In this document: positions 7,938 through 55,274 of the stretch, piece after piece
How the letters are laid out: each line of letters opens with the position of its first letter
How positions within the stretch are numbered: the stretch's first letter is position 1
NCBI GenBank assembly: GCA_036172245.1
Contig: JAYWIR010000099.1
Span: forward strand, 1-64,000
Direction: 5' to 3'
Source of the DNA: Raillietiella orientalis
Lineage: Eukaryota
DNA: 64,000 nucleotides
Notes under the pieces: model-generated
The model's database searches: none
Seen by the model: only the letters and a program-made list of their open reading frames with translations
What the model was told of the DNA's origin: nothing
Position numbers and translations under genes: made by a program

Positions 7938-9390
7938 GCGAAAATCTAGAGGGTGACGCCTCGCAGGAATTCGCGAAGATGTTCTTTCGCTCCAGACAGG
8001 CGTGTCCAGTCCCCTGGCATACGCCAATCCCTGGATGGCGGTACCTTGTCGCGCGGGCGCATCTCGAATAATATTTGGGAATGGTCCGACAGCGTCGATC
8101 CAATTGTTCCTGGTTTTTCGACCCGTGTGCACAGATCTTCGTCGAGGAAGACGTGGTGCACGCTGCTGACCATCCCGTGTATTTCTGTCAATAAGTTGCG
8201 CGCGCGCATGGCGACGCACAACACGTTGATCGCGTTCCCCTGCGCTATGGTCTGATCTGAGAGCAGGCGGACGTTGAAATTCCCAGCTATCAGATGCGCC
8301 TTTTGTACGTCCGCGTCCACCAGCCATTCGCGCTTCAAGGTTTACAGTAACGAGTTGCGCTGCTGGTATCCCTGTTTACCGCTAGGAGCGTAATCATTGG
8401 TGACGATGAGGTCGATCGAATCGGTCCATCTGAGAAACAGTTGGCCGATCCGTCCGTCGTCCCCAAAGCGCACGCCTTTCACGACCGCGTTAATGGCTGG
8501 CTTCAGAAAGAACGCGACCCCACAAGTGTTGCGGGCGCCGCATCATCAGTACAACCCCCCCCCCCGCGATCGTTTGCATCTCCTGCGCGTCTTTTGCGGT
8601 GATCACGTGGATCTCCTGCAAAAGCACCAGGTCGAAATCTCGCAAGGTGGCTGCTGTGTCTCATCTGTTTCCGTCGTCGCGCAGCCTGTTGACATTCCAA
8701 CTGTCCGCGCGGATCCGACGGCGACAGGCGAGTCCAGGTGTTATTCCTGGTAACCTGGTGGTTGGGCTTCCGCCACCTTTTGGGGCGGGTCCCTAAACGG
8801 TGTTGGCGTCTTGCCCACCAACTCCCCATCCTCCTTACGTGCCGACGTCTCCGGCTGCCCGTGCGAAGGGGGTGCTGCTCGTACCTGTTGGCCCACATCC
8901 ATTGGTGCGGGTGGTTCAGGTTCGGCGGTTTCAGAGGGCATTGCTGACCCCTGGTTACCCTCCTCCATTGGAGTCGCCTCCTCGTCGGCTTCCGCACGTG
9001 GGTGATGCCCAACTTGGGCTCCCACGCTGCCATCCACTGGTTCCTCCACCATTGCATCCTCCTCGCGCCGAGGCGGAATGCACCTTCGGGGCTTCGGGGA
9101 TTTTCGTCCAGCTTTCCTTAATGGTGCTTCCGCAGAGGAAGATACACTTCCGTCCTACCGGTCCGACTCACCTGCGGGGGCCATTTTAGACGCTGCCGGC
9201 CTACGCAATCCCTTTCGCGAAGGGTTCTCGCGTTCGGCAAGCGTTGCCGCAAGCTCCTGCGCGGCCTTCTCGAAGGCTGCGTCCTCGGTTTCGGCGAGTT
9301 TGTCACCCGACTGACCCTCTTCGCAAGCAGGGGGTGGGTTTTCGCGCGCATCCGTCGCGGCGGGAAAATCGATTGAAGCCGTATCGCCTC
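7938..9390 (-). mobile_element. Fragment C' (ORF1 C-terminus plus endonuclease), close copy of element C
   Basis: Reverse complement aligns closely with about 14326-15761 (e.g. MVEEPVDGSVGAQVGHHPRAEADEE; KREWLVDADV). Confidence 0.92.
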
Positions 9391-10133
9391 GAAGTGTCCC
9401 GATTCGATCGACCTGGTCGTTACATACATCTACGCTCCAAGCGGCGGCCGGCATTACGCCCGGCGACTCGCGTTTCTGGGTGGCCTGCGCAGCCGCTGGC
9501 TCAACGGCTTTGGCTCCAACGTGGCGCACCACCTTGCAGGAGACTTCAATGTCCACCTGCTTACAGAGGAGAGATGCCGCCTGAGGGAGAAGCAAATGGT
9601 GAGCGAGGTATGCGCATCCGTACACGTGCAAAACTTGCTTGCTGGTAAGCCCAGGATGGAGAGATCTCCGGACTATGCGTTCATCGATGAACACCTGCTC
9701 TCACGAGTAGGTCGGAGAGGGAGCCTGCTGTCCGAGATTTCCGACTATTGAGGACTGGAATTCGAGCTGCTCCCGCCTGGCATGGGGCCTCCGATGAATA
9801 TCTGGAGGCTTGCGGCAGACTGGTTTAGCAATTTGGAGGCGGCGGAGCTTCTCCGCCTGCACCTCCAAGGCTTTGCCATCCGCGGAATGCGACGATCTGA
9901 AAAGATCGGTCTGCGAGTTCTGCTGCCGCTTGCTTTTGCACCTGCTTCAACGCGGTTTTGGTGAGGGTGTCGCGAACAGAAGATCCTTTCTGCAGGCGCG
10001 TACCTTTTCCCGATGCCCGGACATCCGGCTTCTTGCGGAGTACAAGGCCAGGGCCAAGCGCAAGGTCTGGCAGACCGGAACATCATGTCTGCTCGATGAC
10101 GCTGGCAAGGAATGCTCGGCTGCAGCCGATGTT
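9391..10133 (+). mobile_element. LINE fragment A (endonuclease C-half plus linker)
   Basis: DSIDLVVTYIYAPSG, AGDFNVHLL, ISDY and CLLDDAGKECSAAADV; cut by the 3' end of B1. Confidence 0.88.
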
Positions 10134-13127
10134 TGCCACCCGGATATGCCGGGGCATTTATTATTCTAATTTTTTACAAAAATTAGATAATTAAGTCTTT
10201 CAAAAGTTAATTGTGGGAAACACTTTGTTTTCCCACCTTGGTTGACGTGTCTGTTGCCGGTGCATAGACCGGTTAGGTCCATTCCCGAGGCGCATGGGAA
10301 GGGAAAACTGAAACAAAAACAAACAAAAAGAGAGATAACGGTGAGGGAAACAGTTGTATGGGGACAGGGGGGGGGGCAGGGAAGGGATCACTGAGCGCCT
10401 GGGTCGCTCCTCCTCATCCTGTTCAGGATGCAGTCAAGTTCTGTTTTAACTCTGAAAGGTAGACGCCACCTTGTCGCCGTCTCTAAAGAGATCGTCGTCC
10501 AGTGGATGGCGTCCCTGCATCTTGGGCCTCTTCTTCTGGCGTGCCAGCTTTGCACAATGCCGCGCACGCAGCAGAGGACTGCTAGAGACGCAGCGGGGCG
10601 CAGGCCGTCACCCAGAAAGAGGCGACGGTAAATTTCCTTAGGGTCGCCTACTGGAAGATGGAGGATTGGGGCGACTCTACTCCAGAGTCCATCCAAGGCG
10701 ACACACTCGAGGGTGAGATGTGGGAAGGTTCCTCTTTCTCCGCACTCGACACAGCGAGCATCCACATTTCTCAGTGTCCAGTAAGACAGGCGTGCTCTGC
10801 TTAACAGTACCCAGTGCAGAAATAGCAACGTCGTCTCCTGCCACTTCAACGGAAGTGTGCCGCAATCCCAAGACGCTGGGGGCCACTTCACCTCCTCCAA
10901 AGGTATTGCGAGCAGCTCTCCCCAGCGCGCAAGTCCGTGAGGCGGGACGCTCGGGGTGGCAGCGTCCGTGAGCTCTCGAGTCGTCCACGCCTTTAAAGGT
11001 TTTTTCCTGCCTCGCATGAGGCAGGACATTTCCCACGATGCCAGCTCGTTGCTGCTCCTAGTGTTTTTTAGGAAAGACAGAACGGGGGCAAGGGGGCTGA
11101 AAGAAGCCCATAGAAACTTCCGGGGCGTGTTGATAATCTCCTGCAGCGGCTGTCGAGCGTACGGTCCTCGTCGTAGGCAGTTGTATTCCGCCTCGCTCGT
11201 GTCGTTGATCTTAGCCCACGCGGAAGCTGACTGCTGAAGCCAGGCAGTGCAGCTCGCGGGGATGCAGGAGATCCAGGTATTCTCCCTCATCAGGGCGACC
11301 ATTTGGCGCAAATCAAGGCCACAGTTGGAGAGGCTGCGCTGGTAGGCCAGGAGGATCGAGGACAATCCTTCGCAGCCGATGGCTCTTCTGGCGAGGAGCC
11401 GTGCCGGATCGCACCATGGCGTCATCCATAAGCTAGCCGCAAGGGCTAACTTCCGAATTGTTGTCTGTAGTTGGATGCGCTCCAACGAAAGGAGGCCCAA
11501 GCCAACATCCCTGCGTGGAGCGCACAAGTCTTTCAATCGGACTCGCGACCTCGCTGTGCCCCAAAGGGAAGTCTTTAAGAGGGCTTTGGTCCGTCTCTGT
11601 ATGATGGGAGAAGCGGGGCAAACAATAAGTAAGATGCGAAGGAGGGGGGCCGCGAACGCGTTGCACACCGCGGCCCGCTGCTGCAAGTAAAACTTGCTGT
11701 TCCGGAACGGGCCGATCGCCAACTCCACCTTTTGGAGACGGTCGGACCAGGCTTCTGCAACGCAGAAGTCCCCCAACAGAACGCCAAGGTACTTGAAGCA
11801 CCTGCCCGTGGGGATCCCCAAGCGGATCCAGTCCGGCCGTCCGGCCCACTCCGTTTTGTTAAAAAGTAGTGGTGATGTTGGAACGATGGAAGATTTCTCT
11901 CTCTTCACCTCGAGGCCCGTCCCGCGGCGCAGCAACTCAAAGAAATCTTGGAGCGCCTACGCCAGGGTGGACCCGGGGAGCAGGAGCAGAAGGTCGTCGG
12001 CGTAGGCCGACACGGCATGCGTGCCGGGACACGAGCTTGGCAGGGTTGCCAGAGTCTCGCTGTATGCCCTCAGCACCAGTTCGAAGTAGATGCTGAAGAG
12101 CATGGGGCTCAGACTGTCACCCTGCCTTATGCTACGCCGAACCGGCACGCCGTACACGTGCCGGCCGCTTAAAGAGATGTTTATTAGAGCGAAGCGCCAG
12201 CAGGAGCGCAGGTAAGCCCGGAAGACGGCCGGGAATCCCAAGCGTTCCAGGAGCTCCAGAAGCAGTTCCTGGTCGACGCAATCGAACGCTTTACGCAGAT
12301 CGACTGCGACCGCAAGGGCACCGGGCGCAACTCTTCCATGAAGGGCGTCCCCTCCCTGGTCAGAGGAGAATCCAGAATTCTCTTGACCTCCCTGGTCTTT
12401 GCTTTGTTGCAACTGCCACCATGTACTGGCGAGGAACAGGTTGGCCTCCATGCTTCGTCCGGGAACAGCGTATGTCTGCTCCGGACTCACCACGGATTCC
12501 GCCACCCGTCCCAGTCGCTCAGCCCAAAGCTTGGCAAGCAACTTCGCATCCGCATTCACTACTGTGATGGGACGCCAGTTGCCTACGTTGCGATTGTCTC
12601 CTCCTTTCGGCAGGAGACGTACTCTAGCTGACCGGAACGATTTGGGGACGTCCCGTTGTTCTCGGATCAGCATGCATAGCCGATGCACCAGGGGGACCAG
12701 CTCCGCCACGAAGCCTTGGTAGAACTCCGCGGGCAGACCGTCTTCCCCTGGTGCTTTCCTCTTTCGGAGCTTTGCGATGGCGGAGACGATCTCCGCCATT
12801 GAGAAAGGCTCCGCGAGTTCATGTGCCTGCTCCTCCTGCAGCGCGGGGGCACCTTGCGGCAGCAAGCGCTGCGCCACGGCGTTCTCTGTTGTTCTACGCG
12901 CGTACAAGGAAGAGTAAGAGTCCCGCAGGATGCGGTTTATTCTCGCCGGAGCTGAGCATTCTTGGCCTTGGGCGTCCAGCAGGCTGGGCGACCCGGATTG
13001 CCAGGTCTGTCGCTCAGCCCCAGCTTTATACTCCGCCAGCCGTCGAACGTCGGGAGTGCTAGAGTAGAGACTGGCGTGGTGGTATGCCCAGTCGTTCCTC
13101 AGCCCTTCGCCGAAAGCCGGTGTAGGT

Positions 13128-13149
13128 GGACGTGTTTTTTGGTCGCTCC
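13128..13149 (+). promoter_or_regulatory. Candidate internal promoter motif of LINE C
   Basis: GGACGTGTTTTTTGGTCGCTCC at +13 from the TSD; 19/22 identical to the motif at the 5' end of E. Confidence 0.55.
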
Positions 13150-13223
13150 CCCAACGCCTGTCTGGGAAGCAACCGGAGTTTTTTTAGTGTAGTCAGGTGT
13201 TAAGTGTGGGTCATCGGTGTCCG

Positions 13224-14975
13224 ATGGCAGCCGTGCCAGAGGACACTGCGATGGATGTGGTTGTTGGGGAGGCAAGTCCTACCACAGGACCTACATCTAT
13301 GGGGGCAATAGTCCCTGGAACGTCTTCGCAGCCGGCGAAGACTTGGAGTGAAATGGTCGCCGCCCCCAGTGCGGAGGCCATGGCCAAGCAAGCCGCCTAT
13401 CGGGCCTCTGAATACAAGCCATCGCTTGTATACAAGGTAGGCCCTTTGTTTGAAGGAAACACGGCGCGCTCTTTCAGCAGAGCGCTACAAAATGCTAATG
13501 TCCGTGAGGAAGATCTGGACGGTCTGTGCGTGCTCAGCGGGGCACAGCGGGTTGAGCTGGTGTGCAAGAGCATCAGCCTAGCCGATCGCCTTATAAATAC
13601 CCCGCTGATCATGGACGGCCGTAAGATCTTCCCGGTGTCAATGGACCACTCGGTAGTGGTCCACTTGACAGGAATATCCAAGCGCATGACGCGCACTGCC
13701 GTAAAAGCAGAATTAAGTAAGTACGGGGACGTACACGCGCTGTGGCCGAAGCCCACAATCTTTGAGGGCTACGGACGCCACTTCGGGGGCCTCGCTGCGG
13801 CACGCGTAACCCCAAAATACGAAGCGAAGCTACCCCACAAACTTGAGGTCGCGGGAGAACCAGTAGACCTCTGGTATGCTGGCAAGCCACGGTATTGCGG
13901 CTACTGCGATGCGGTCGGACACATCCGTAAGAGGTGCCCGAACATCGTATGCTACTTGTGCGGGGAGAAGGGACACGTCCGTCGCGTGTGCCCTAAACGC
14001 CCCACCCCAATTTCCACGGCCGCCAAAAAGGCGCAAGCGAAACGCGCGGGGAAAGAAAAATTAGAAAACCGTGAAACTGGCCAAGAAAAGCTGCCAATAA
14101 CCCAAGCTTCAAGCGCGGCATCGGAGAAAAATCTTCCCGAAACCGCAGAGGGTGAACAGGGCTGGCAGCTAGTCAAAGTCAAAAAAGAAAAAAAGGACAA
14201 GCATGTCCCGAAGAAAGGAGAGAAGGCGGCGGCCGGAACAAAAGCTCAATCCGTGTCGCGCGTAAAAACTCTCCGAGAATGCACGGTTACGCTGGAGCGC
14301 ATTGACGTTCCCGCCGACACCACCGGAGGCGATACGGCTTCGATCGATTTTCCCGCCGCGACGAATGCGCGCGAAAACCCACCCCCCGTTTGCGAAGAGG
14401 GTCAGCCGGACGACAAAATCGCCGAAACCAAGGACGTAGCCTTCGAGAAGGCCGCCGAGGAGCTTGCGGCAACGCTTGCCGAACGCGAGAACCCTTCGCG
14501 AAAGGGGTTGCGTAGGCCGGCAGCGGCTAAATTGGCCCCCGCAGGTGAGTCGGACCGGGAGGCCGGAAGTGCATCCGCCTCTGCGGAAGCACCACCAAGG
14601 AAAGCGGGGCGAAAATCCCAGAAACCCCGAAGGTGCATTGCGCCTCCGCGCGAAGGAAATCCAATGGTGGAGGAACCAGTGGATGGCAGCGTGGGAGCCC
14701 AAGTCGGGCATCACCCACGTGCGGAAGCCGACGAGGAGGCGACTCCAATGGAGGAGGGTAACCAGGGGTCAGCAATGCCCTCTGAAACCGCCGAACCTGA
14801 ACCACCCGCAGCAATGGATGTGGGCCAACAGGTACGAGCAACACCCCCTTCGCACGAGCAGCCGGAGACGTCGGCACGAAAGAAGGATGAGGAGTTGGTG
14901 GGCAAGACGCCAACCCTGTCCAGCGACCCGCCCCAAAAGGTGGCGGGAGCTCCACCGCCAGGTTCCCAGGAATAA
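13224..14975 (+). CDS. Element C ORF1, nucleic-acid-binding protein (583 aa) with two CCHC zinc knuckles
   Basis: Uninterrupted from ATG 13224 to TAA 14975. CGYCDAVGHIRKRC and CYLCGEKGHVRRVC follow an RRM-like region; basic and low-complexity tail. Confidence 0.88.
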   Translation: MAAVPEDTAMDVVVGEASPTTGPTSMGAIVPGTSSQPAKTWSEMVAAPSAEAMAKQAAYRASEYKPSLVYKVGPLFEGNTARSFSRALQNANVREEDLDGLCVLSGAQRVELVCKSISLADRLINTPLIMDGRKIFPVSMDHSVVVHLTGISKRMTRTAVKAELSKYGDVHALWPKPTIFEGYGRHFGGLAAARVTPKYEAKLPHKLEVAGEPVDLWYAGKPRYCGYCDAVGHIRKRCPNIVCYLCGEKGHVRRVCPKRPTPISTAAKKAQAKRAGKEKLENRETGQEKLPITQASSAASEKNLPETAEGEQGWQLVKVKKEKKDKHVPKKGEKAAAGTKAQSVSRVKTLRECTVTLERIDVPADTTGGDTASIDFPAATNARENPPPVCEEGQPDDKIAETKDVAFEKAAEELAATLAERENPSRKGLRRPAAAKLAPAGESDREAGSASASAEAPPRKAGRKSQKPRRCIAPPREGNPMVEEPVDGSVGAQVGHHPRAEADEEATPMEEGNQGSAMPSETAEPEPPAAMDVGQQVRATPPSHEQPETSARKKDEELVGKTPTLSSDPPQKVAGAPPPGSQE

Positions 14976-17565
14976 AACCTGGACTCGCATGTCGCCGTCG
15001 GATCCGCGCGGCCAGTTGGAATGTTAACGGGCTGCGCGACGACGGAAACAGACGAGATACAGCCGCCACCTTGCGAGATTTCGACCTGGTACTTTTGCAG
15101 GAGATCCACGTTATCACCGCAAAAGACGCCCAGGAGATCGAAACGATTGCGGGAGGGCGGTTGTACTGGCGATGCGGCGCCCGCAACACTTGTGGGGTCG
15201 CGTTCTTCCTAAAGCCAGCCATTAACGCGGCCGTGAAGGGCGTGCGCTTTGGGGACGACGGACGGATCGGCCAACTGATTCTCAGATGGTCCGATTCGAT
15301 CGACCACATCGTCACCAATGTGTACGCTCCTAGCGGTAAACAGGGATACCAGCAGCGCAACGCGTTACTGGAAACCTTGAAGCGCGAATGGCTGGTGGAC
15401 GCGGACGTGCGAAAGGCGCATCTCATAGCAGGGGATTCCAACGTCCGTCTGCTCTCAGATCAGCCCGGAGCACAGGGTAACGCGATCAACGAGTTGTGCG
15501 CCGCCATGCGCGCGCGCAACTTGTTGACAGAAATATGCGGGATGGTCAGCAGCGTGGACCACGTCTTCCTCGACGAAGACCTGTGCACACGGGTCGGAAA
15601 ACGAGGGACACTTGGATCGACGCTGTCGGACCATTCCCGGTTAGTATTCGAGATGCGCTCGCGCGACAAGGGACCGCCATCCAGGGATTGGCGTATGCCA
15701 GGGGACTGGACGCGCCTGTCAGGAGCGAAAGAACATCTTCGCGAATTCCTGCGAGGCGTCAGCTCTTGCTGGCGGAACGCGATAATCTCAATTACTTTCA
15801 GTGGACAAAAGGTGTATGGCGTGCCGGTACGGCGGGGCATAAGGCAGGGCGACAGCCTCAGCCCCCTGCTTTTTAGCACCTACGCTGAGTTGGTGCTGAA
15901 AGCGTACAGGGTGACTTTGGCCCCCTTGCCGAGCTCGTGCCCCGGCACGCCAGCCGTAGCGGCGTATGCCGACGATCTTCTGCTCCTCTTACCTATGTCC
16001 ACCCCGGCTAAGGCGGTCGGAGGTTTCTTCGACCTGTTTAGCCGTGGGGCCGGATTACAGGTTAACAGGGCGAAGTCGTCAGTGTTGCCAGTTGCAGCGA
16101 CGTGGGCAGGGCAGCAGGACTGGGTCCGTCTGGGTATCCCTACGGTGAGGTGCATCAAGTACCTCGGTGTGCCGTTGGGGGACTTCTCCCCTGAGGAAGC
16201 GTGGTCCAGCTGCCTCCAAAAAGTCGAGACGGCGATCGGCCCGTTCCTGGAAGGCAAGTTTCACTTGCCGCAACGGGCCGCGGTTTGGAAGGCCTTCGCG
16301 GCCCCCATCCTCCGCTCCTTGCTTTTTGTTTGCCCGCCCCCGTGGAATCGAAAAAGCGGACTAAGGACCTCCTCCGCATAGCTCTTTGGGGCAAGGGGAG
16401 GCGCCGATTCCCTTTGAAGGACTTGTGCGCTCCGCGTCGGGACGGCGGTCTCAGCATCCTGACGCTGGAGCGCGTGGAAATCCAGCTGCGATGGCGGACC
16501 CTCGCCATCGCAGCGAAGATGTGGAGCACCGCTTGGTGCATTCCGGCCCGCCTCCTGGCCAGGCGTGTGTCTCGCTGCGAAGGACTCGCATCGTTTCTTC
16601 TGTGCCCTGGCCGGAAGATTCGAAGATGCGGTCTAATGCTCGGCCGCATGGCAACCCTGGCAAAGGAGAACTACTGGATGGTTTGTGGCCCTGCCAACTC
16701 CTCCGTTTGGCTGGAAGAGACTGCTGGCACCTGGGCTAAGCAGAACCAAAGGTGCGAAGACCGGATGAACTGTCTGCGAGTCGGCTTATACGCCCGTCGC
16801 ACTCTCCGTGAAATTCTTGAATTTCCACCGAGTTGCACGTGGGCGGAAGGCACACCCCTTGTTACGGCGATGCCCTTCCTCCAAAGGGCGCTTCACGGAA
16901 GCCAGAAGCCAAGGTGGCAAGTCTGCTGCAGTATCGCAGGCAGAGAGAAGATGATGAGCGGCTGGACCATGGGAGAGTTGACAGATGCAACGACCCCTAG
17001 TCTCCAGCCGCGTGGATTAAGAAGATGGGGCGAGATGCTCGGCATTCGATTGGATAACCTGAGGTGGCCCCCGGTTGTACTTGAATCCAGGATTCTCCCC
17101 CTGAAGTGGCAAGAATCGGCGCTTCTGTGGCTGCATTGGGGTCTACTCTGCAACGCGCGCCGCTTCCACTGGACGCGGGGAAGAGTAAATCCTGCGTGTG
17201 CCAGGTGTGGGGAGCGGGAGTCGCTCCCCCACCTCTTAGTTGAATGCCCTGCCGTCCAGATTCTTTGGGATCGTCTGAAAACGGCCCTCCGGATACCGGA
17301 TGGCGGCAATGTTGAATGTATCTTCAGTCTTGTCTTCGTGCGGGACGCTCTCAGTCCAGCCGCAGCCCTGGCAGCACTTTGCTGCATTCGTGGTATCGTG
17401 GCGGCGTGGAGTGATGCCGAAGATGAAGACTGCATCGTGAGGGACGTCATCGAGTATGCTTTGCGCTTCCTGCAGAGAGCTACCCGATGGCCCCATCTAG
17501 GAAAGCTGAAAATGGAACTAGAAGGCATCCTGCAAAGGATGGGCGCTCCCAGCAGTTTTCTGTGA
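14972..17565 (+). pseudogene. Element C ORF2: endonuclease fused in frame to the RT C-half, frameshift near 16340
   Basis: SWNVNG..LLQE..SDH..HLREFLRGV runs directly into SSCWRNA..GIRQGDSLSP..YADD; CARC..HLLVEC near the end. Confidence 0.88.
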
Positions 17566-19174
17566 TCCCTTCCCGGCCCTCCAAACTTTTTTTTTGTGGT
17601 TTGTTCTTCTATTTTATTTTATTTTTGTTTTTTCCCCGATCCCCCTCCACTGCCGAGGAGAGCCACACCGGTCTGCGTCCCGGTGTCCCTTCAGTTCCGG
17701 CATTCCGTGGCCGTCAGTGGGGCCTTGTACCACGTTCTGTATTGACCGTTGAAATGTTTTTGATAAACGTCCCGGCGTATCCGGGTGGCATCGCCGAAAC
17801 CTGGAGGGAGACGGTTCACGGGAAACTCGTCGCAGAACTCGCGGACTGAGCTCTCCAAATCGTCCCAGTCCGCGAGCGACTGCAGATGGAAGCCTTGCAG
17901 GAACGAGCGAAGATGTTGCGCTGCTCCTGCAAGGCGCAACCAGTCCCCTGGCAAACGCCACGCTTTGGAGGGTGGACCTCTACCGCGCTGGTGTATTTCT
18001 AGCGCGAGCTGGGGATGGTCGGAAAGTTCGGATGGCACTGCCCCTCGATTTCCCACCCGCGAACACAGGTGGTTGTCGAGGAACATGTGGTCGATCCTCG
18101 TGTCCGTCCCGGCGTCACCGGCCAACAAGTTGCGCGAGTGCATGGCAGCGCACATCTCGTAGACCAGCTGTGCAAGAATGTCGGGCGCACCTGCCAGCAG
18201 GCGGACGTTAAAGTCCCCGGAAATGAAGTGCGCCTTTCGCATGTCTGCTTGGGCGAGCCAATCTCGTCGCAGGCCTTCAAAAAACGCAGTGCGTTCCCCG
18301 CGCCTGTGGGTCGTGCCGGGCGCGTACACGTTGGTCACGACGAGGTCGATCGCGTCGGACCACTTGGCAACAAGCTGCCCGATTTGAGCTTCCCCGTCGA
18401 AGTGCACGTCGCGCAGCGCGTTAACGACGGCTGGCTTCAGCATGAAAGCCACACCGCGGGTGCGGTCTCTCCCGTTCTTGTATATGAGCCGCCCGCTTGC
18501 GATCCGTTCGATTTCCTGAGCCTCCCCTGCGTGGAGAACGTGCGTCTCCTGCAGAAGCGCCAGGTCGAAGTCCCGCAGGCTGGCGGCCACTTCTCTCCTC
18601 TTGCCGTCGTCGCGCATCCCGTTGACGTTCCAACAGATTACGCGCAGTCGCCGGCAGGAGGAGAGTCCACGCGTTGGTGTGTTTATTGTGCTTGCTTACC
18701 GCCCTCCGCCTGCTATTCAGCAGGCGGGAGTTGTGTATCCATTGCGACGGGCTGTTGCTCGCAAGGAGGCGGTCCGTTGGTGGTTGTTGTGGTGGTTGGA
18801 GGATCCTGCTTGGCCAGGGACGTCTCCGGCGAGGAGTCGCGAGACCTCGCGGACATCGCCTCCCCGTCGTCGTGGTCCGACCGCATTTCCAAATCCGCCG
18901 GTGAAGGTGCGGAGCGCCGCGAGTTGCCTACCTTGCGGCCCGCTTTGCGCTTCGGGAGAGCGACAGCCGGAGCGTTGCCGGCTTCGGCTTCGGACTCGGA
19001 AGTCTCCGGTCCATTCGCCTCAGCCGGACGCCTCAAGGCCTTCTTCTGGGCCTTGGGAGGCTGCTGGAGCATGGCTGCCAACTATTCCGCCGCCTTGTTG
19101 AAGTCCCGGTCGTCGCTGCTCACGCTTGTCTCGCGACTTTGTCGCGGCGTCGGCGTTCGCGCGGCGGCGGGTTG

Positions 19175-22100
19175 TTCACACCCGGATGTGCCGGGGCATT
19201 TATTTCATAGTAATAAAATTACAGAAAAATGTCGCGTGGCGAAGCCGAAGGTTCACCACTCCAAAACAGCTTGCTGGTTACCGGCTCCGTGCCGGAGAGG
19301 TCCTTCCGATGCGCGGGGATGGGAAATAAAGAAAAACAAAAAGAAACAAAAAGTTCAAATGTGGGGAGGAACAAATGTTGTATGGGTGGGAGGGCGGGGA
19401 AGCGATCACGGTGCGCGTGGAGAGGTCCTCTAGATCCTAATCAGGATCCGCACAAGCTGAGTCCTTTCAGCACCCAAGTGGCGCCACTTGCAGACACTGC
19501 GCGGGAAAAGGCGAGTGCAGTGTAAGGCGTTGCCGGTTGGCTGACGCCTTCTTCTGGTGGCGTTCCAGGCCGTCACTATTCCTCTGATGCAGCAGAGGAC
19601 TGCTACACTAGCGGGCGGGGACAAGGCGTCACTACAGAAGAGGCGCCTGAAAACGTCCTTTGGGCCGCATCCGCGCAAGTCCAGGATCGCCGCGAGACGA
19701 TCCCACAAAGGGCGGAGGGCGCTACACTCAAGGAAAAGGTGGGAAAATGTTTGTTTTTCCCCACACCGGTCACAATTGGAATCCACATCCCCCCATGTGG
19801 TGTGGTGCAGGCGTGCTTTAAATGGTAATCCCCAGAGTACCACAAGAAACGCCACATCCTGCCATTTCAGGGGGAGGCGTGCACTGTTCCAGGACGCTGG
19901 GGGCCACTTCATCTCCTCCGGAGATAGTCCGAGTAGCTCGCCCCAGCGTCGAATTCCGTTAGGCGGGACACTCGGCGTCGCAGCGTCAGCTAGCTGCCGA
20001 GATGTCCACGCCTTTATCGATTGTGTCCTGCCGCCTATAGTGCAGGACACGGTCCATTTCCCCTGCTCGCTACTGTCCCTGGCATTCACAAGGAAGGGCA
20101 GCACTGGGGCGAGGGGGGTTATCAAGGCCCACAGAAGCTTGTCGTGGGACTGCACGATCTCCTGCAGCGTCCAGCGGGCGTGCCTTTTCATACAAGTGTT
20201 CCTTGTGCCCGCCGGAACGTGGAACTTTACCCAGGTGGAGACTGACTCGTGCAACCAGGCGGAGTAGTTCCCTGGGAGGCAGGAGATACAGGCGTTCTCC
20301 CGAACCGCAACAAAGATGCGTCGCAGCATAGAGCCACAGTATGGTCTTCTGCAGACGCGCGCAGACAGAAATGACAAAAGTCCGCCGATTCCGCAGGCTC
20401 GTTGGGCCAGGAGGCGTGCTGGAACGCACCAAGGCGTGTCCCACAATTCTGCCGCAAGGGCGAGAGTCCTGAATCGAAGTTGTAGTTCCATGCGCTCCAG
20501 CGTAAGTACGCCAAGTCCACCGTAATTACGTGGAGCGCACAAGTCTTTGAGCCTCACATGGGACCTCCCTTTGCCCCAAAGGACTGTCCTCAGGAGGCCC
20601 GCTGCTCGTTTCCGAATAAAATAAGGAGCGGGGCAAACAAAAAGTAGGGGGCGAAGGAGGGGAGCCGCAAACGCGTTCCACACCGCGGCCCGTTCCTGCA
20701 AGTAGAACTTGCCTTCTTGGAACGGACCGATCGCCAACGCTGCCTTTTGGAGACGGTCGGACCAGGCTTCTGCTGCGCAGAAGTCCCCCAACGGTACGCC
20801 GAGGTACTTGAAGCACCTGCCCGTGGGGATCCCCAAGCGGATCTAGTCCGACCGTCCAGCCCACGCCGAAACGACGAAAACCATGGACGACTTCGCCCTG
20901 TTCACCTCCAGGCCCGTCCCGCGGCGCAGCAACTCGAAGAAATCCTCGAGCGCACTCGCCGGGGTGGACCCGGGAAGCAGCAGCAGAAGATCGTCTGCAT
21001 AGGCCGACACGGCAGGCGTGCCGGCACACGAGCTCGGCAGGGCTGCCAGAGTTACCCTGTATGCCCTAAGCACCAACTCGAAGCAGATGCTGAAGAGCAA
21101 GGGGCTCAGGCTGTCACCCTGCCGTATGCCGCGGCGTACGGGCACGCCGTACACGTGCCGGCCGCTGAAACCGATATTGATTGACGCGTTGCGCCAGCAG
21201 GAGCGGAGGTAAGATTGGAGCACGGCAGGGAAACCCATGTATTCCAGGAGCTCCAGAAGGAGATCCTGGTCGACGCAGTCGAATGCTTTGTGCAAATCGA
21301 CCGCGACGGCAAAGGCTCCCCTTGAGTCCATCCCACCCTCTGCCCGATCTTCTTGGTCAGAGGGGGGCGCGAGGCTCCCTTGACCGTCCTGTGCAACGCG
21401 TTGTCGCAACTGCCACCATGAGCTGGCGAGGAGCAGGTTGGCCTCCATGGTTCGTCCGGGAACAGCATAGGTCTGCTCGGGACTGACCACGGAAGCGGCC
21501 ACCCGCCCCAAACGCTCAGCCCACAACTTGGCATACAACTTTGCGTCCGCATTCACTACTGTGATGGGACGCCAGTTGGTAATGTTGCGTAAGTCTCCTG
21601 ACTTCGGCAGGAGACGTACTTTATCTGACCGGAACGAGGCGGGAACTTCGCCGTGTTCACGGATCAGCGCACTTAACCTGAGCACCAGGGGGGCCAGCTC
21701 TGACGCGAAGCGATGGTAAAACTCCGCGGGCCGGCCGTCCTCCCCTGGTGCCTTCCCTCTCTTGAGCCTGTTGATGGCGGAGATGATCTCCGCCATCGTG
21801 AACGGTTCCGCCAATCTGGAACGGTCCTCCTCCTTGAGCGCGGAAGCGCCATCCGGCAGCAGGCGCTGCGCAAAATGGCGCTCAGGTGTTAGTGGCGCGT
21901 ACAAGGAGGAATAAAACTCCCGCACGATGCGGCTTACCTGGGCTGGACCAGCTCTCTTGGCCCTGATGATCCAGCAGGCAGGCCGAGCCTGACTGCCAGG
22001 TCTGCCTCCGCCTCAGCCTTGAATTCAGCCAGGCGACGGACGTCGGGACGCCGGGAATAACGGCGCGCCTGGAGGTACGCCCGCTCGTTCCTGACACCCT

Positions 22101-22925
22101 CACCGAAGCCCGGCGGAAGACGTTCCAGGGGAAACTGGTCGCAAAACTCACGGAGTGAGCACTTCATTTCGTCCCAGTCCGCGAGCGTCTGAAGCTGGAA
22201 TCCTCGCAGGAAACAGCGTGAATGTTCCGCCGCTCCTGCGAGGCGCAACCAATCCCCTGGCAGGTGCCATGTTTTCAGGGGAGGGCCCTTATTGCGCGGA
22301 TGTAACTCGAGCACGAGCCGTGGATGGTCGGACAGCTCTGCCGGGAGCGTTCCTCGAGTTCCCACCCGCGTGCACAGGTGGTTGTCGAGGAACATGTGGT
22401 CGATGTTCCGATCTCTCCCGGCATCGCCGGCCAACAAGTTGCGCGCATGCGTGGCTGCGCACAACTCGTTGACCAGCTGTGCTCGTCCGCTGGGCGCACC
22501 TGCCAGCAGGCGGAGATTGAAATCGCCCGCAATGAGGTGCGCCCTTCGCACGCCTGCTTCGGCCAACCAGTCTCGCCGCAAGGTTTCGAAGAACGCAGTG
22601 CGTTCCTCGGCCCTGTGCCTGCTCACCGGAGCGTACAGGTTCGTGACTACGACGTCGATCGAGTCGCACCACTTGAACACAAGCTGCGCAACTCGACCAT
22701 CCCCGTCGAACCGTGCACAGCGCAGTGAGTTGTCGACGGTTGGCTTTAGCAGAAAGGCCACTCCGCAGGATTTGTCCGTTCCGTTCCTCCACAGAAGCCG
22801 CCCTCCCGCGATTCTTTCGATTTCCTGGACATCTCCCGGTCGGAGAACGTGCGTCTCTTGCAGGAGCACCAGGTCGAAATCTCGCAGTATGGCGGCTACA
22901 TCTCGCCTCTTTCCGTCGTCGCGGA
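19175..22925 (-). mobile_element. LINE D (near-complete ORF2, no ORF1)
   Basis: Endonuclease (DLVLLQETH, GDFN, SDH), RT 20843-21925 with YADD, C-terminus 19430-20836; hairpin 19181-19195 with AATAAA at 19199-19204 on the minus strand. Confidence 0.92.
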
Positions 22926-22940
22926 ACCAAGAACGATGAA

Positions 22941-25470
22941 CCGAGAACAATGGGACGTCCGCAAATCGTTCCGGTCCGCTATAGTACGTCTCCTGCCGAA
23001 AGGAGGAGACAATCGCAACGTAGGCAACTGGCGTCCCATCACAGTAGTGAATGCGGATGCAAACTTGCTTGCCAAGCTTTCGGCTGAGCGACTGGGACGG
23101 GTGGCGGAATCCGTGGTGAGTCCGGAGCAGACATACGCTGTTCCCGGACGAAGCATGGAGGCCAACCTGTTCCTCGCCAGTACATGGTGGCAGTTGCAAC
23201 AAAGCGAAGACCAGGTAGGTCAAGAGAATCCTGGAATCTCCTCTGACCAGGGAGGGGACGCCCTTCATGAAAGAGCCGCGCCCGGTGCCCTTGCGGTCGC
23301 AGTCGATCTGCGTAAAGCGTTCGATTGCGTCGACCAGAAACTCCTTCTGGAGCTCCTGGAACGCTTGGGATTCCCGGCCGTCTCCCGGGCTTACCTGCGC
23401 TCCTGCTGGCGCTTCGCTCTAATAAACATCGCTTTTAGAGGCCGGCACGTGTACGGCGTGCCGGTTCGGCGTAGCATAAGGCAGGGTGACAGTCTGAGCC
23501 CCATGCTTTTCAGCATCTACTTCGAACTGGTGCTGAGGGCATACAGCGAGACTCTGGCAACCCTGCCAAGCTCGTGTCCCGGCACGCATGCCGTGTCGGC
23601 CTACGCCGACGACCTTCTGCTCCTGCTCCCCGGGTCCACCCCGGCGTCGGCGCTCGAAGATTTCTTTGAGTTGCTGCGCCGCGGCACGGGCCTCGAGGTG
23701 AACAGAGAGAAATCTTCCATCGTTCCAACATCACCACTACTTTTTAACAATACGGAGTGGGCCGGACGGCCGGACTGGATCCGCTTGGGGATCTCCACGG
23801 GCATATGCTTCAAGTACCTTGGCGTTCCGTTGGGGGACTTCTGCGTTGCAGAAGCCTGGTCCGACCGTCTCCAAAAGGTGGAGTTGGTGATCGGCCCGTT
23901 CCGGAACGGCAAGTTTTATTTGCAGGAGCGAGCCGCGGTGTGGAACGCGTTTGCAACCCCCCTCCTTCTCCCCTTACTTTTTGTTTGCCCCCCCCTCTTA
24001 TCATACAGATACGGACCAAAGCCCTCTTGAGGACTTCCCTTTGGGGCACAGCGAGGTCGGGAGTCCGATTGAAAGACTTGTGCGCTCCACGCAGGGATGG
24101 TGGCTTGGGCCTCCTTACGTTGGAGCGCATCCAAATACAGACAACACTTCGGAAGTTAGCCCTTGCGGCTAGCTTATGGATGACGCCATGGTGCGATCCT
24201 GCACGGCTCCTCGCCAGAAGAGCGACCGGCTGCGAAGGATTGTCCTCGATCCTCGTGGCCTACCAGCGCAGCCTCTCCAACTGTGGCCTTAATTTGCGCC
24301 AGATGATCACCCTGATGAGGGAGAATACCTGGATCTCCTGCCTCTCCGCGAACTGGACTGCCTGGCTTCAGGAGTCAGCTTCCGCGTGGGCTAAGATCGA
24401 CGGCACGAGCGACGCGGAATACAACTGCCTACGACGAGGACCGTACGCTCGACAGCCGCTGCAGGAGATTATCAACACGCCCCGGAAGTTTCTGTGGGCT
24501 TCTTTCAGTCCCCTTGCCTTCGTTCTGTCCTTTCTGAAAAACAGTAGGAGCAGCAACGAGCTGGCATCGTGGGAAGTGTCCTGCCTCATCCGAAGCAGGA
24601 AAAAACCTTTACAGGCGTGGACGACTCGGAAGCTCACGGACGCTGCCACCCCGAGCGTCCCGCCTCACGGACTTGCGCGCTGGGGGGAGCTGCAAGCAAT
24701 ACCTCCGGAGGAGAAGTGGTCCTCAACGTGTTCGGATTGCGGCACCCTTCCGTTGAAGTGGCAGGAGACGGCGTTGCTATTTCTGCACTGGGGACTGTTA
24801 AGCAGAGCACGCCTGTCTCCTGGACACTGGGGAATGTGGATGCCCGCTGTGTCGAGTGGGGAGAAAGAGAAACCTTCCCGCATCTCACCCTCGAGTGTGT
24901 CGCCCTGGATGGACTCTAGTGTAGAGTCGCCCCAATCCTCCATCTTCCAGTAGGCGACCCTAAGGAAATTTACCGTCGCCTCTTTCTGCGTGACGGCTTG
25001 CGCCCTTCTGCGTCTCTAGCAGTCCTCTGCTGCGTGCGCGGCATTGTGCAAAGGTGGCACGCCAGAAGAAGAGGACCAAGATGCAGGGACGACATCCACT
25101 GGACGACGATCTCTTTAGAGACGGCGACAAGGTGGCGTCTACCTTTCACAATGAAAACCGAACTTGACTGCATCCGTAACAGAATGCGGAGGACCGACCC
25201 AGGCGCCCAGTGATCCCTTCCCTTACCCCTTCTCTTCCCATACAACTGTTTCCCTCCCCGTTATCTCTCTTTTTGTTTGTTTTTGTTGTAGTTTTCCCTT
25301 GCTATGCGCCTCGGGAATGGACCTAACCGGTCTATGCACCGGCAACCGACACGTCGAGCAAGGTGAGAGAACCCAGTGTTTTTCCCACAGAAAACATCTT
25401 TTTAAAGAATTTATTATCTAATTTTTGTAAAAAATTTGAATAATAAATTCCACGGGATATCCGGTTGGCA
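22941..25470 (+). mobile_element. LINE B2, 5'-truncated copy of family B
   Basis: Closely matches the reverse complement of B1 10134-12665. RT with YADD; ORF2 stop 25213; AATAAA 25442-25447 plus degenerate hairpin. Confidence 0.92.
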
Positions 25471-26849
25471 AACGTGTGCCTGTACGCTTTTTGCACCAAC
25501 TCAGAGTATATGCTGAAGAGCAACGGGCTTAAGCTGTCGCCCTGTCTGATGCCTCTGCGAACGTCCACTCCGTACACGCGATAGCCACTGAAATTCAAGT
25601 TCATAATCGCGTAAAGCCAACGGGAGCGCAATTACAGTAGAAGATGATTCAAAAGGCCATGACGCTCCAGTAGCTCCCAGAGAAGTTCTTGGTTTACGCA
25701 GTCGAATGCTTTGTGCAAATCTACTGCTACTGCCAAGGCTCCCGGGCTTTCTCCCTTCCGTCCGCACTGTTGTACGCAGTCGGCAGAAGGTCTTGTCGCT
25801 GTTCGGCTAGCCGCCGCAACGCTCTTTTGAAGCTGCCACCAGGTGCGCGCGAAATGGGTCGCATGCATGGATCTACCCGATACAGCGTAAGACTGCTCCG
25901 GGCTTACCACGGACACCGCGACTTTCCCTAAGCGCGTGACCTACAGCTTCCAAAAAAACTTGACGTCCGTATTCACTAATGTGTTCGGACGCATGTTGCT
26001 GAGTTGGCACAGATCTTCTCCTTTCGGAAGGGGACGCACCCTCGCTGAGCGGAAGGAAGAAGGGACATCGCCCGTCACCTTCATCAGCGTGGAGATTCTA
26101 AGCACCAGTGGGGCGAGTTCCGCCGCGAAGCCTTGATGGGACTCCGCGGGCAGTCCGTCCTCACCTGGCGTCTTCCGTCTTCTGCGTCCTGCGATGGCGG
26201 CAGAAACTTCCTCAAACGTGAAGGGCTCGTCGAGACTTGCGCGTTCCTTTTCGTAGATGCCATGTGCAGCCCGCGTCAAAAGTAGATCGGAGAGGACTCT
26301 TTCCCTCGGGGAATTGTCGTGGAGCAAGGAGAAGTGACGCTTTAGTGCTCGCCGCACTTCGGCAGGAGCCGTGCATTCCCGGCCTTGGACGTCGAGCACA
26401 ATAGCCGCTCCAGACTGCCAGACCTGTCGCTCGGCCCTCGCCTTGTACTCTGCGAGTTGCCGGACTTCCGCACGTCTCGAGAAAATGCGCGCCTGCAGAA
26501 ATGTTCTGCTATTCGCCACGCCTTCCTTGAAGCCGCGTGTGAGCAGGTGCAGGGGGAACCGGTCGCAAAACTCGCGAACCGATTTTTTAAGATGGTCCCA
26601 GTCTGCGAATTCCCGGATGGCAAAGCCGCGAAGGTACTGGCGAAGATGCTCCGCCGCTTCCGGATGACTCAGCCGATCCTTTGGAATCCTCCAAACATTG
26701 TTTGGAGGTCCCTTGCCAGGCGGGAGTAGTTCGAACTTTAGCGTATCATGGTCCGAAAACGTAAACGGCACCCTGCCTCTCCTTCTGACTCGCGAGAGTG
26801 GGTGTTCATCGAGGTAGAGGTGATCCACTCACCTTTCCAGTCCAGGCTC
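25471..26849 (-). mobile_element. LINE fragment H (family E: endonuclease end to mid-RT)
   Basis: Closely matches E at about 31715-33080 (DHLYLDEH, ECTAPAEVRRALKRHFS, DLHKAFD, GIRQGDSLSP). Confidence 0.9.
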
Positions 26850-27726
26850 ATCGAACGGTGCGCGGGCGGAACGCTACTTTATAGGTGCGGCGTCGCTTTC
26901 CTCGTGCGAGGAACTTTGGCGGGAGCGGTGCGCAGCGTTCGTTTCGACACGGAAGGCCGAGTGGGACAGCTTGTACTCAAGTGGTCCGTCTCGATCGACC
27001 TTGTCGTTAACAACGTGTACGCGCCGAGCTGTGCTGGACAATGGGCTGGAAGGATTGAGTTTTTCGGTACACTTCAAAGCCAGTGGCTCCCTCGATCTCA
27101 CCCTACTCGGCCCATCTCATTGCGAGGGACTTTAACGTCCACCTGCTTTCCGAGAATAGATCCCACAAAAGGGAAAAGTTGCTAGCGGAAGAGATGTGCG
27201 CGTCCGTGCACGCGTGCAACTTGTTCGCTAGCGACCCTGTTATGGCAGCAGCGCCGAAACACGTATACCTTGATGAACACTTGCTCCGTCGAGTGGGTCG
27301 GAGAGGTCCCGTGCCGTCCGTGCTTTCAGATTACAACAGGCTCGAGTTCGAGTTGCTCCCGCCAGGCAAGAGGCCTCCAAACTGTTTTTGGAGGATGCCA
27401 GCAGACTGCCTAAGCCACCCGGAGGCGGCTGAGCATCTTCGCCAGTACCTCCTCGGCTTAGCCATAAGTTAGCTCGAGCACTGGGACGAACGTAAATGAT
27501 CGGTCCGCGAGTTATGCTGCCGGTTTCCCTTGAACCAGCTTCCGCGCGGCTTCGAAGAGAACGTAGCCAACAGCAGAAATTTTCTGCAGGCATGCTCTCT
27601 TTCCAGGCGCGCTGACGTTGGTCGATTATCCGAGTACAAGCCAAAGGCCGAGCGCCAGGTCTGGCAGTCAGGGGCGACAGTTCTGCTCGACGACCAGGAC
27701 CGAGAATGCTCAATCCAGCCGACGTT

Positions 27727-29612
27727 TCTCACCCGGATATGCCGGGGCATTCATTATACTAATTTTCTACAAAAATTAAATAATGAAGTCTTTAAAAAAA
27801 GATGTTTTCTGTGGGGAAACACTGGGTTATCCCACCTTGCTGGACGTGTCGGTTGCCGGTGCATAGACCGGCTAGGTCCATTCTTGAGGCGCATGGGAAG
27901 AAAAAACTAGAACAAAAACAAACAACAAGAGAGATAACGGGGAAAGAAACAGTTGTATGCGGAGAGGGAGGGGGCAGGGAAGGGATTACTGGGCGCCTGG
28001 GTCGGTCCTCCGCATCCTGTTAAGGATGCAGTCAAGTTCTGCTTTAACTGAGAGAGCTGGACGCCACCTTGTCGCCGTCTCTAAAGAGAACGTCGTCCAG
28101 TGGATAACGTCCCTGCATCTTGGTCCTCTTCTTCTGGCGTGCCACCTTTGCACAATGCCGCGCACGCAGCAGAGGACTGCTAGAGACGCAGCGGGGCGCA
28201 GGCCGTCAGCAGAAAGAGGCGACGGTAAATTTCCTTAGTGTCGCCTACTGGGAGATAAAGGATTGGGGCGATTCTACTCCAGAGTCCATCCAGGGCGACA
28301 CACTCGAGGGTGAGATGCGGGAAGGTTTCTCTTTTTCCGCAGTCGACACAGCGGGCATCCACTTTCCCCAGTGTCCAGTGAGACAGGCGTGCTCTGCTTA
28401 ACAGTCCCCAGTGCAGAAATAGCAACACCGTCTCCTGCCACTTCAACGGAAGTGTGCCGCAATCCCAACACGCTAGGGGCCACTTCACCTCCTTCGGAGG
28501 TATTGCGAGCAGCTCTCCCCAGCGCGCAAGTCCGTGAGGCAGGACGCTCGGGGTGGCAGCGTCCGTGAGCTCCCGAGTCGTCCACGCCTTTAAAGGTTTT
28601 TTCCTGCCTCGGATGAGGCAGGAGACTTCCCACGATGCCAGCTCGTTGCTGCTCCTACTGTTTTTCAGGGAGGACAGAACGGGGGCAAGGGGACTGAAAG
28701 AAGCCCACAGAAACTTCCGGGGCGTGTTGATAATCTCCTTCAGCGGCTGTCGAGCGTACGGTCCTCGTCGTAGGCAGTTGTATTCCGCGTCGCTCGTGCC
28801 GTCGATCTTAGCCCACGCGGAAGCTGACTCATGAAGCCAGGCAGTCCAGTTTGCGGAGAGGCAGGAGATCCAGGTATTCTCCCTCATCAGGGTGACCATC
28901 TGGCGCAAATTAAGGCCACAGTTGGAGAGGCTGCGCTGGTAGGCCACGAGGATCGAGGACAATCCTTCGCAGCCGGTCGCTCTTCTGGCGAGGAGCCGTG
29001 CAGGATCGCACCATGGCGTCATCCATAAGCTAGCCGCAAGGGCTAACTTCCGAAGTGTTGTCTGTATTTGGATGCGCTCCAACGTAAGGAGGCCCAAGCC
29101 ACCATCCCTGCGTGGAGCGCACAAGTCTTTCAATCGGACTCGCGACCTCGCTCTGCCCCAAAGGGCAGTCCTCAAGATGGCTTTGGTCCGTCTCTGTATG
29201 ATATGAGGGGCGGTGCAAACAAAAAGTAATGGGCGTAGGAGGGGGGCCGCGAACGCGTTTACACCACGGCCCGCTCCTGCAAGTAAAACTTGCCGTTCCG
29301 GAACGGGCCGATCGCCAACTCCACCTTTTGGAGATGGTCGGACCAGGCTTCTGCAACGCAGAAGTCCCCCAACGGAACGCCAAGGTACTTGAAGCACCTG
29401 CCCGTGGGGATCCCCAAGCGGATCCAGTCCGGCCGTCCGGCCCACGCCGTATTGTTGAAAGCAGTGAAGATGTAGGAACGATGGAAGATTTCTCTTTGTT
29501 CACCTCGAGGCTTGTCCCGCGGCGCAGCAACTCAAAGAAATCTTCGAGCGCCGACGCCAAGGTGGACCCGGGGAGCAGGAGCACAAGGTCGTTGGAGTAG
29601 GCCGACACGGCA
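27727..29612 (-). mobile_element. LINE B3, 5'-truncated copy of family B
   Basis: Closely matches B1 10134-12017; starts just before the YADD-equivalent (YSND); hairpin 27732-27746. Confidence 0.92.
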
Positions 29613-30094
29613 GCTTACGGAACGAAGTCTCTCCAAGCTGCTTCTTCCGACGGGTAGCACTGCTTTCGACGAGGAGGAACGCGCCGATAACGGCGAGTTC
29701 TTTCTGGCAGCGGTCGGGAATACGCTAGACGACAACGGACGAGATTCCTAAGGCGCCTGGGGAGGATGCCCTCACCGAAGGGTTCTTTCAGTGCTTCGCG
29801 GCGGAGCTCGTCCCCCTGGTGCTAAGCCTTTCCTCGCTGATGCGTTTTGAACCCGGTTGCGCCGAGACGTTTATTTGTAAAAACGAACCACAATCTTCAA
29901 GGCAAATTCATCCTTTCGAGACACAAGAAACGCCCATACAGTAAGTTCAGTTCAGAAAGATCACCGGCACGCAGGGTGCTTTTCAAAAGAAAGGAACGGA
30001 GGGAGAGGTCTGCAGAATAAACAAAACATAAGGGAACAAACAAAAAAAAAATAACAGTGGAGGGTGGGGTCAGGTAGTAAACGTTCCTAATCTT

Positions 30095-36389: not shown

Positions 36390-36402
36390 GTCTTTTCCTT
36401 TT

Positions 36403-41510: not shown

Positions 41511-41532
41511 GGAGCGACGCAAAAGCACGTCC
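41511..41532 (-). promoter_or_regulatory. Candidate internal promoter motif of LINE E
   Basis: GGACGTGCTTTTGCGTCGCTCC at +12 from the TSD. Confidence 0.55.
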
Positions 41533-44540: not shown

Positions 44541-44544
44541 CTGT

Positions 44545-45095: not shown

Positions 45096-45144
45096 AGGAA
45101 ACTTATCTTTGCTCGCTTCACCTTTCACCACCGCCTAAACGTAA

Positions 45145-55161: not shown

Positions 55162-55274
55162 TGACGGCAAGGCGGTCCCTTCCCATCGTTCCTCTTAGGA
55201 AAGCAAAGTACCTTTGTCCTCTCCAGCAGTGAAAACAGCTTGCATGATTGAGTTTCGCTGGTTCCATGGAGACG

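Follow-up and report, generated by a model that had tools for sequence, protein, structure and literature searches.

Two copies of an L1-like LINE family joined to the same homologous nucleotide of two different host LINEs in Raillietiella orientalis

A nest of LINEs and a shared insertion site

The stretch of Raillietiella orientalis DNA analysed here (the window, that is, all 64,000 nucleotides at positions 1 to 64,000 of contig JAYWIR010000099.1, GenBank assembly GCA_036172245.1) holds in its first 45 kb a nest of long interspersed nuclear elements (LINEs) with a GC content of ~57%, adjoining flank of 36–45% GC. Within this nest, two copies of one LINE family (family B; copies B1 and B3) end at the same homologous nucleotide of two different host LINEs (A and G), and a third copy (B2) ends at a look-alike site in another LINE.

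The identity of the cluster elements follows from their coding content. Pfam searches on 13 long open reading frames (ORFs) recovered Exo_endo_phos in two (E values of 1e-10 to 2e-17), RVT_1 in five (1e-11 to 1e-22) and zf-CCHC above the cutoff in two, both of them ORF1s, and no domain in two; zf-RVT matches in three ORFs were sub-threshold (19.7–23.1 bits against a cutoff of 27.5). Mapping with tblastn placed ORF1, endonuclease, linker, reverse transcriptase (RT) and C-terminal parts across 1–45 kb on both strands, with ORF2 arranged in the order apurinic/apyrimidinic endonuclease (APE), linker and RT. The closest solved relative in the PDB is human LINE-1 ORF2p (RT, E ~1e-18; endonuclease (EN), E ~1e-4), and the nearest database protein in a protein search is a metagenome protein with 60% identity. 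By these matches, the cluster elements are classified as APE-type non-long-terminal-repeat retrotransposons (that is, LINEs) and as L1-like. At least ten LINE-in-LINE 3' junctions lie within the 45 kb, and both flanks were resolved for four insertions.

The copies form two clades. Clade I comprises E1 (673–4612), E2, D, G and A, with mutual identities of 67–71% (87.7% for D versus E2), and clade II comprises the B copies, I+J, C/C', K and F. Against the clade II copies compared (I+J, the long B copy, K, C' and C), A and G show 53–59% identity, and A is 67–70% identical to E1, E2, D and G versus 58% to the B family. We considered B2 as the downstream part of A and rejected it on this last figure; likewise, N (43993–44600) and C' were dismissed as halves of one element, given a nucleotide identity to C of 92% for C' and an amino-acid identity to C of 53% for N.

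Host fragment A (9392–10133, forward strand; placed in clade I by identity) adjoins the 5'-truncated element C' at its left edge, starts where the endonuclease domain ends, extends into the EN–RT linker and stops at the junction with B1. B1 (10134–13120, reverse strand) is the 3' part of a long B copy and comprises a 3' untranslated region (UTR; with AATAAA and a CCCGG-N5-CCGGG hairpin), a zf-RVT-like region, the RT and part of the linker. The left part of G (26885–27726, forward) is followed in the same manner by B3 (27727–29612, reverse), which is 5'-truncated in the RT region. On the forward strand, the junctions read ...GGCTGCAGCCGATGTT|TGCCACCCGGATATGCCGGGGC at 10133/10134 and ...AATCCAGCCGACGTT|TCTCACCCGGATATGCCGGGGC at 27726/27727, and the target motif is CAGCCGATGT in A (10123–10132; CAGCCGATGT-T spans 10123–10133) and CAGCCGACGT in G (27716–27725; CAGCCGACGT-T spans 27716–27726). 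A global alignment of 9300–12100 with 26887–29700 puts both junctions in one alignment column. Exo_endo_phos and RVT_1 domains flank the site (A translates as ...KECSAAADV), and B1 and B3 are both antisense to their hosts. A preliminary description of this DNA, made from the letters alone, had reported these same adjoining strings, the ECS..ADV linker position and the antisense orientation, and each was recovered here.

Independence of the two insertions

The same description had held that A and G are more diverged from each other than B1 and B3 are, and had argued from this for independent insertion rather than duplication of one composite. Pairwise comparison bears out the premise: A and G are 67.2% identical on the host side of the junction (497/740 aligned bases, 10 gap columns), and B1 and B3 are 92.2% identical on the B side (1734/1880). 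In 100-column windows, identity climbs from 62–73% to 78–97% at the junction, and the change occurs within one window. Despite the 33% divergence, the frames of A and G are mostly open (1–2 stops and one frameshift each; in A, one stop and one frameshift), and we therefore regard them as different lineages and not as decayed twins. The third copy, B2 (22931–25470, forward strand), is 93.4% identical to B1 and 92.9% to B3, and the three are related in a star-like manner, with 73, 56 and 63 private changes and six sites at which all three differ (1,891 alignment columns).

The 5' ends of B1 and B3 differ by kilobases. B1 had been described as a fragment of ~3 kb, an extent that we revise, as it continues past a nested insertion (13121–17790) to 19176. 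The nested element, the C-F LINE, lies antisense within the long B copy (forward strand; ORF1 zf-CCHC, APE and RT matches) and is bounded by a target-site duplication of 9–14 bp (TCGCCGAAA(G/C)C(C/T)GG, 13107–13120 and 17791–17804). When C-F is removed, 17805–19176 joins 13120 gaplessly in alignment to I+J, and B1 thus reaches into ORF1. This 5' part of the long B copy (H, 17805–19176, reverse) carries the endonuclease domain and a truncated ORF1 (by tblastn matches to APE and ORF1), and its ORF1 homology to C extends up to the 19176 junction. Within C-F itself, the C|F join at 15761/15762 is also at odds with simple nesting: it skips from the linker directly to RT residue ~425, through either a deletion or an RNA chimera.

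A joint alignment of all three B copies sets the 5' end of B3 at 29612. G resumes at 29613, the base after the nick in uninterrupted E2 and E1, with no duplication and no loss; a candidate hidden duplication at this junction (GGCCGACACGGCA) was discarded as B's own sequence. This middle part of G (29613–29845, forward; compared with E2, E1 and a read-through contig described below) is interrupted by E2 (29846–41544, reverse), a full-length clade-I LINE antisense in G, which itself holds a LINE of another family at 34335–40045. G resumes again at 41545 as its right part (M, 41545–43992, forward), running from the RT to the 3' end at 43992 and linked to 29613–29845 by an 11-bp duplication (CGCTGATGCGT, 29835–29845 and 41545–41555).

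An unoccupied version of the site was found outside the assembly. A sequencing-run search identified one public DNA run (X1) that shares 12% of the window words, the only run found, and listed no RNA run as sharing window sequence. One X1 contig matches G up to 27711 and then reads ...GGCTCCAGCCGACGTG CGACGG... (at the empty site, ...CCAGCCGACGTG CGACGG...), that is, an unoccupied G-like site; this evidence is one contig from one run, and that run could derive from the source sample itself or from a relative. Another X1 contig joins 17797 back to 13101 and might represent tandem C-F copies.

A composite of host LINE and B copy could have been duplicated, with its B parts later homogenised by gene conversion, and the colinearity of 9392–12017 with 26979–29612 across both junctions is what such a history would leave. 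A duplicated composite would, however, be expected to show similar divergence on both sides and shared insert boundaries, and the observed pattern is the step from 67% to 92% within a single 100-column window, 5' ends that differ by kilobases and, for B3, a host that continues flush behind the insert. The mostly open reading frames of A and G and the star-like relationship of the B copies, among which no conversion tracts were seen, further argue against it, and we hold this history to be very unlikely. On the identity step, the different 5' ends and the empty G-like site in X1, independent insertion of B1 and B3, as first proposed, is well supported.

Equally improbable in our view is that repeats 92% alike were wrongly joined during assembly. 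The setting would favour such errors, as this is a nest of similar repeats in which three junctions misfit simple nesting. For four insertions, nonetheless, the two ends agree, with duplications that match or a flush empty-site geometry, an outcome that mis-joins would not yield and that counts against an artefact.

The three irregular joins are as follows. J|H (19176/19177) is head-to-tail, the 3' end of J meeting the long B copy at its 5' end; it fits two successive insertions at the site in A, but the downstream part of A that this history calls for is absent from its place. I|B2 (22925/22931) is head-to-head and brings two 5' ends together. D|G (26884/26885) is likewise head-to-head, with an internal break of D against the 5' end of G, so that D is cut at both ends. 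Twin-priming inversions were tried for D/G and I/B2 and rejected, as coordinates and families do not fit.

Flank, nick position and a probable sequence preference

In element orientation, the 3' ends read ...GGGTGGCA in B1, ...GGGTGAGA in B3 and ...GGTTGGCA in B2 (ending at 25470); the terminal bases of B1 and B3 differ, and all three copies are followed by AACRT (AACAT for B1, AACGT for B3 and B2), both as noted in the preliminary description. B2 adjoins D (25471–26884, reverse strand), an E2-like host LINE fragment, at ...CAGGCACACGT-T (25482–25471 in D orientation), antisense and in the RT region. This site, at which D was compared with E2, is not homologous to the A/G site, but its sequence CAGGCACACGT is similar.

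Uninterrupted E1, E2, D, I+J, K and the long B copy (H+B1) can be aligned across the A/G site, which makes the bases adjoining B host sequence. At this position, GT is followed by G in E2 and in the X1 read-through copy, and GTT by B3 in the window copy of G; the T at 27726 was most likely templated by one A of the B3 tail. The AACRT flank is thus probably host target sequence plus about one tail-derived A, and the conserved flank may be longer than AACRT, extending to GCCGAYGT and possibly to CAGCCGAYGT. Given that the host sense strand continues into the antisense strand of B, the nick is placed on the host sense strand after ...GCCGAYGT, a step that follows the established mechanism of target-primed reverse transcription.

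The 3' ends of the cluster elements are alike: 11 ends show AATAAA, ~10 nt, CCCGG-N5-CCGGG, T-NNN-A and 0–5 A's before the flank, with the conserved AATAAA 20–25 nt before every element end. The B copies keep 0–2 A's, and at none of the 11 3' junctions is there a poly(A) or simple-repeat tail beyond the 0–5 A's. The terminal hairpin CCCGG-N5-CCGGG is predicted in all seven of the ends that were folded (of 11), with z-scores of -0.5 to -1.7 that are individually not significant. A 3' terminus common to 11 copies, variable 5' ends and duplications (0 bp for B3, 9–14 bp for C-F, 11 bp for E2 and 13–15 bp for the LINE within E2, which is headed by a U4 small nuclear RNA) are the marks of target-primed insertion.

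We propose, with a probability of roughly 0.65, that B1 and B3 arose through target-primed insertion by an endonuclease that prefers a moderately long GC-rich motif, within a self-nesting LINE cluster. On this proposal, the two copies would represent two separate target-primed reverse-transcription events of one L1-like family in different, older hosts of sister lineages. The B endonuclease (APE type) would nick the host sense strand after 5'-...(CA)GCCGAYGT-3', between the endonuclease and RT domains, and the freed 3' T would pair with the first A of the B RNA tail, with priming by one or two T's. Reverse transcription would then start at the 3' UTR terminus (AATAAA-N-CCCGG-N5-CCGGG-T-NNN-A); for B3, the second strand would be cut at the nick position, giving a flush insertion, and 5' truncation would vary by copy. 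The same nucleotide would have been used because only A and G among the LINE copies of the cluster carry the 10-mer, and B2 would have used its look-alike site. The junctions, the identity step, the different 5' ends, the clean empty-site geometry and the YG(T) bias are observed; that the motif is read by the endonuclease and not by some other determinant, how long the motif is and that priming uses the A tail are inferred.

Precision of this kind might instead reside in the RNA: the read-through tail of a resident B (AACRUCGGCUG...) could anneal to the nicked homologous site and fix the start of reverse transcription. Annealing of read-through tails occurs in R1/SART-type elements. The nucleotide-precise junctions, the same flank in two hosts and the absence of a long A tail from all 11 3' ends (0/11) would suit such homing, but the AATAAA 20–25 nt before every end and the 1–5 A's at several junctions fit cleavage and polyadenylation at the element end. 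Moreover, the B2 site is non-homologous, with a flank match of ~5–8 nt only, and an endonuclease nick at the site would still be required. We consider RNA-guided homing unlikely, and return to the endonuclease and its target.

A bias is measurable across the cluster. Ten LINE 3' junctions were tested (B1, B2, B3, J, M, E2, F, K, E1 and the U4-headed LINE) with possibly tail-derived T's removed and a null of 0.184 per site for YG. Six of the ten end in YG (P 0.004); with the copy ending at 54572 included, the count is 6/11 (P 0.008). This additional copy is a further E1-like 3' end and adjoins non-LINE sequence. Beyond the dinucleotide, two of the three B copies sit at the homologous CAGCCGAYGT and the third at CAGGCACACGT. 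CAGCCGAYGT occurs twice on both strands of 1–45,000 and is B-occupied both times, a count that is circular, as these sites supplied the motif. The 10-mer is absent from the six other copies that could be aligned there, all of them empty, the variants in E1 and E2 being TAGCCGGTAT and CGGCCGAAGT.

Related motifs recur at the sites of sister families. E2 nicked G after GCTGATGCGT, and thus three of 44 GCYGAYG occurrences lie at most 6 nt from a junction. A looser pattern, CAG[CG]C-N1-3-AYGT, written post hoc, occurs nine times, three of which are the B sites and a fourth the E1-into-K junction, and the E1 site CAGGCGAACGTTGAAA carries a B2-like motif. In an anchored similarity test, four of 45 target-site pairs reached P 0.005 (B1/B3, F/K, B3/E1 and B2/E1), of which B1/B3 is the homologous pair. 

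Two further observations concern cleavage sites elsewhere in the nest. The 5' end of B2 (22925–22943) lies within 1–2 nt of the column at which the 11-bp duplication of E2 begins in G (41545–41555); the homologous site GCTGAT(G/C)CG at the RT start may be a second preferred cleavage site, or the agreement may be chance. K and F, sister lineages that are 74.6% alike, are inserted antisense at non-homologous linker sites ~95 nt apart (7937 and 17791). Their sites are similar (...CCCTCTAGATTTTCGCT and ...CCCTCCAGGTTTCGGCGA; anchored P ~0.005), with a motif unlike that of B. We had also considered K and F to be at homologous sites; C' is colinear with other copies and the K site is ~95 nt upstream of the F site, and the idea was dropped.

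Several findings weigh against a motif-reading B endonuclease. There are only three B sites, two of them homologous, and the longer motif was written after seeing them. Of the GCYGAYG sites, 41/44 are unoccupied, and the empty G-like copy in X1 holds a perfect 10-mer (CAGCCGACGT), so that more than the motif is needed for insertion. A terminal YG is lacking at the junctions of F, K, E1, the U4-headed LINE and the copy ending at 54572. The targets are all within a near-pure LINE stretch, in which regional targeting could explain LINE-in-LINE insertion, and the J/H, I/B2 and D/G junctions do not conform to simple nesting. A scan of a genome-contig collection with the B 3' end gave no matches, and in metagenomes the shared 3'-end pattern was found at 16 loci, all GC-rich hairpins in unrelated context and none of them a LINE.

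These points bear on whether the shared nucleotide is coincidence, in that a short nick motif (YGT or AYGT) combined with a regional draw to the LINE cluster (for example, through chromatin) might have brought B1 and B3 to one position by luck. As the first 45 kb are nearly all LINE, local insertions would land in LINE in any case; the junction bias that can be demonstrated statistically is YG(T) only, and many motif sites are empty. Short-motif sites are, however, abundant: the 3,522 nt of G contain, on the two strands, 105+91 YGT and 20+20 AYGT. A pair at the same nucleotide would therefore need luck of ~1/40 to 1/200 even with a short motif (40 AYGT or 196 YGT sites in 3.5 kb, that is, ~0.5–2.5% per pair). 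The B2, E2 and E1 sites also match the A/G site beyond YGT, and the six homologous copies that lack the 10-mer are all empty. Coincidence is accordingly improbable to us, if less so than the preceding alternatives. As for the sequence preference that the preliminary description had ascribed to the endonuclease, it is moderately favoured by the three similar B sites, the 6/10 junctions ending in YG(T) and the related motifs in sister families, on a sample of three B sites in one window.

A broader proposal can be sketched, which we regard as tentative and rather doubtful. Sister LINE lineages (58–72% alike) may home into short GC-rich motifs in each other's EN–RT linker, mostly antisense (8/10 insertions are antisense to the host, P 0.055), and so build and renew a LINE-only chromosomal domain, for example a centromere-like nest; five of ten insertions lie within ~530 nt around the linker and RT start, a region defined post hoc. 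The motifs would be GCYGAYGT-like, or TTTYCGSC-like for F/K, with each lineage having its own nick motif and second-strand offset (flush to 15 bp).

Neighbouring features and known LINE systems

The LINE within E2 (34335–40045) is a full-length element of another family that carries a full-length U4 small nuclear RNA (snRNA; 34333–34470, forward strand) at its 5' end. The U4 match is to Rfam RF00015 (90.5 bits, model positions 1–138 of 138), with the Sm site AAUUUUUG kept. ORF1 lies at 34482–35801 and ORF2 begins at 36298, and the whole unit is enclosed in one 13–15 bp duplication (TAGCGATCGCGAGAG). The U4 head could have arisen if reverse transcription ended with a switch of template to U4; another possibility is that the LINE formerly resided within a U4 gene and was transcribed together with it. 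Outside the nest, an inverted repeat of ~340 bp (94.7% identity; 45130–45468 and 54837–55176, ~9.4 kb apart) surrounds degraded LINE fragments, and the AT-richer right flank contains a piggyBac-type transposase fragment (63165–63866, forward; Pfam DDE_Tnp_1_7, E 2e-45) whose nearest proteins are 53–68% identical. The other right-flank ORFs gave no Pfam match.

Human LINE-1, which offers the best solved relative of the EN and RT of these elements, inserts by target-primed reverse transcription, with 5' truncation and with T's at the nick priming on the A tail, and the window elements resemble it in the first two respects and probably in the third. LINE-1 nicks at TTTT/AA, has long A tails and makes duplications of 7–20 bp, whereas nicks in the window come after a YGT that is part of a GC-rich motif, the tails have 0–5 A's and the duplications measure 0–15 bp.

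Nested clusters have been described for green algae: PMC8226300 (which cites Higashiyama 1997 for Zepp) and PMC3446292 present the Zepp/ZeppL L1 LINEs as GC-rich elements in nested self-insertion clusters with frequent 5' truncation, and bioRxiv 10.1101/2025.03.28.645958 also covers nested, self-targeting Zepp-like clusters. The window cluster is similar in its GC content of ~57% beside flanks of 36–45% and in its nesting by insertion into existing copies. It differs in that several lineages, 58–72% alike, are each other's targets, rather than a single family being its own, and in the conserved AATAAA before every 3' end, a comparison that is by description and not by phylogeny. Green algae use a different polyadenylation signal.

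Choice of a defined site within another repeat is documented for Tx1-clade LINEs, for which PMC4494074 lists Tx1 in Tx1D (a piggyBac-type transposon), Keno in U2 genes and SINEU-3 in Mariner-N4_AMi. These elements and family B are alike in being APE-type, in belonging to the wider L1 group and, probably, in an endonuclease-chosen sequence within another repeat, and the window likewise holds an snRNA-headed retroelement (the U4 head). The specificity in the window, however, looks looser, with two of three B copies at homologous sites and the third at a look-alike, and the B target is a coding linker of sister LINEs rather than a DNA transposon or RNA gene; the likeness drawn here is one of behaviour. 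A search of the open-access literature for same-site LINE-into-LINE insertion returned nothing closer.

Sequence-preferring nicking is already known from a few other LINE families, and family B is a probable local example of it and not a new principle. If the preference is real, the cluster would provide a natural series of related L1-type endonucleases with different, fairly long motifs, and with the variants of their targets lying beside them in one cluster. Such a series would be material for understanding how APE-type endonucleases gain specificity and how LINE-only domains (for example, the Zepp centromeres of algae) grow by self-nesting.

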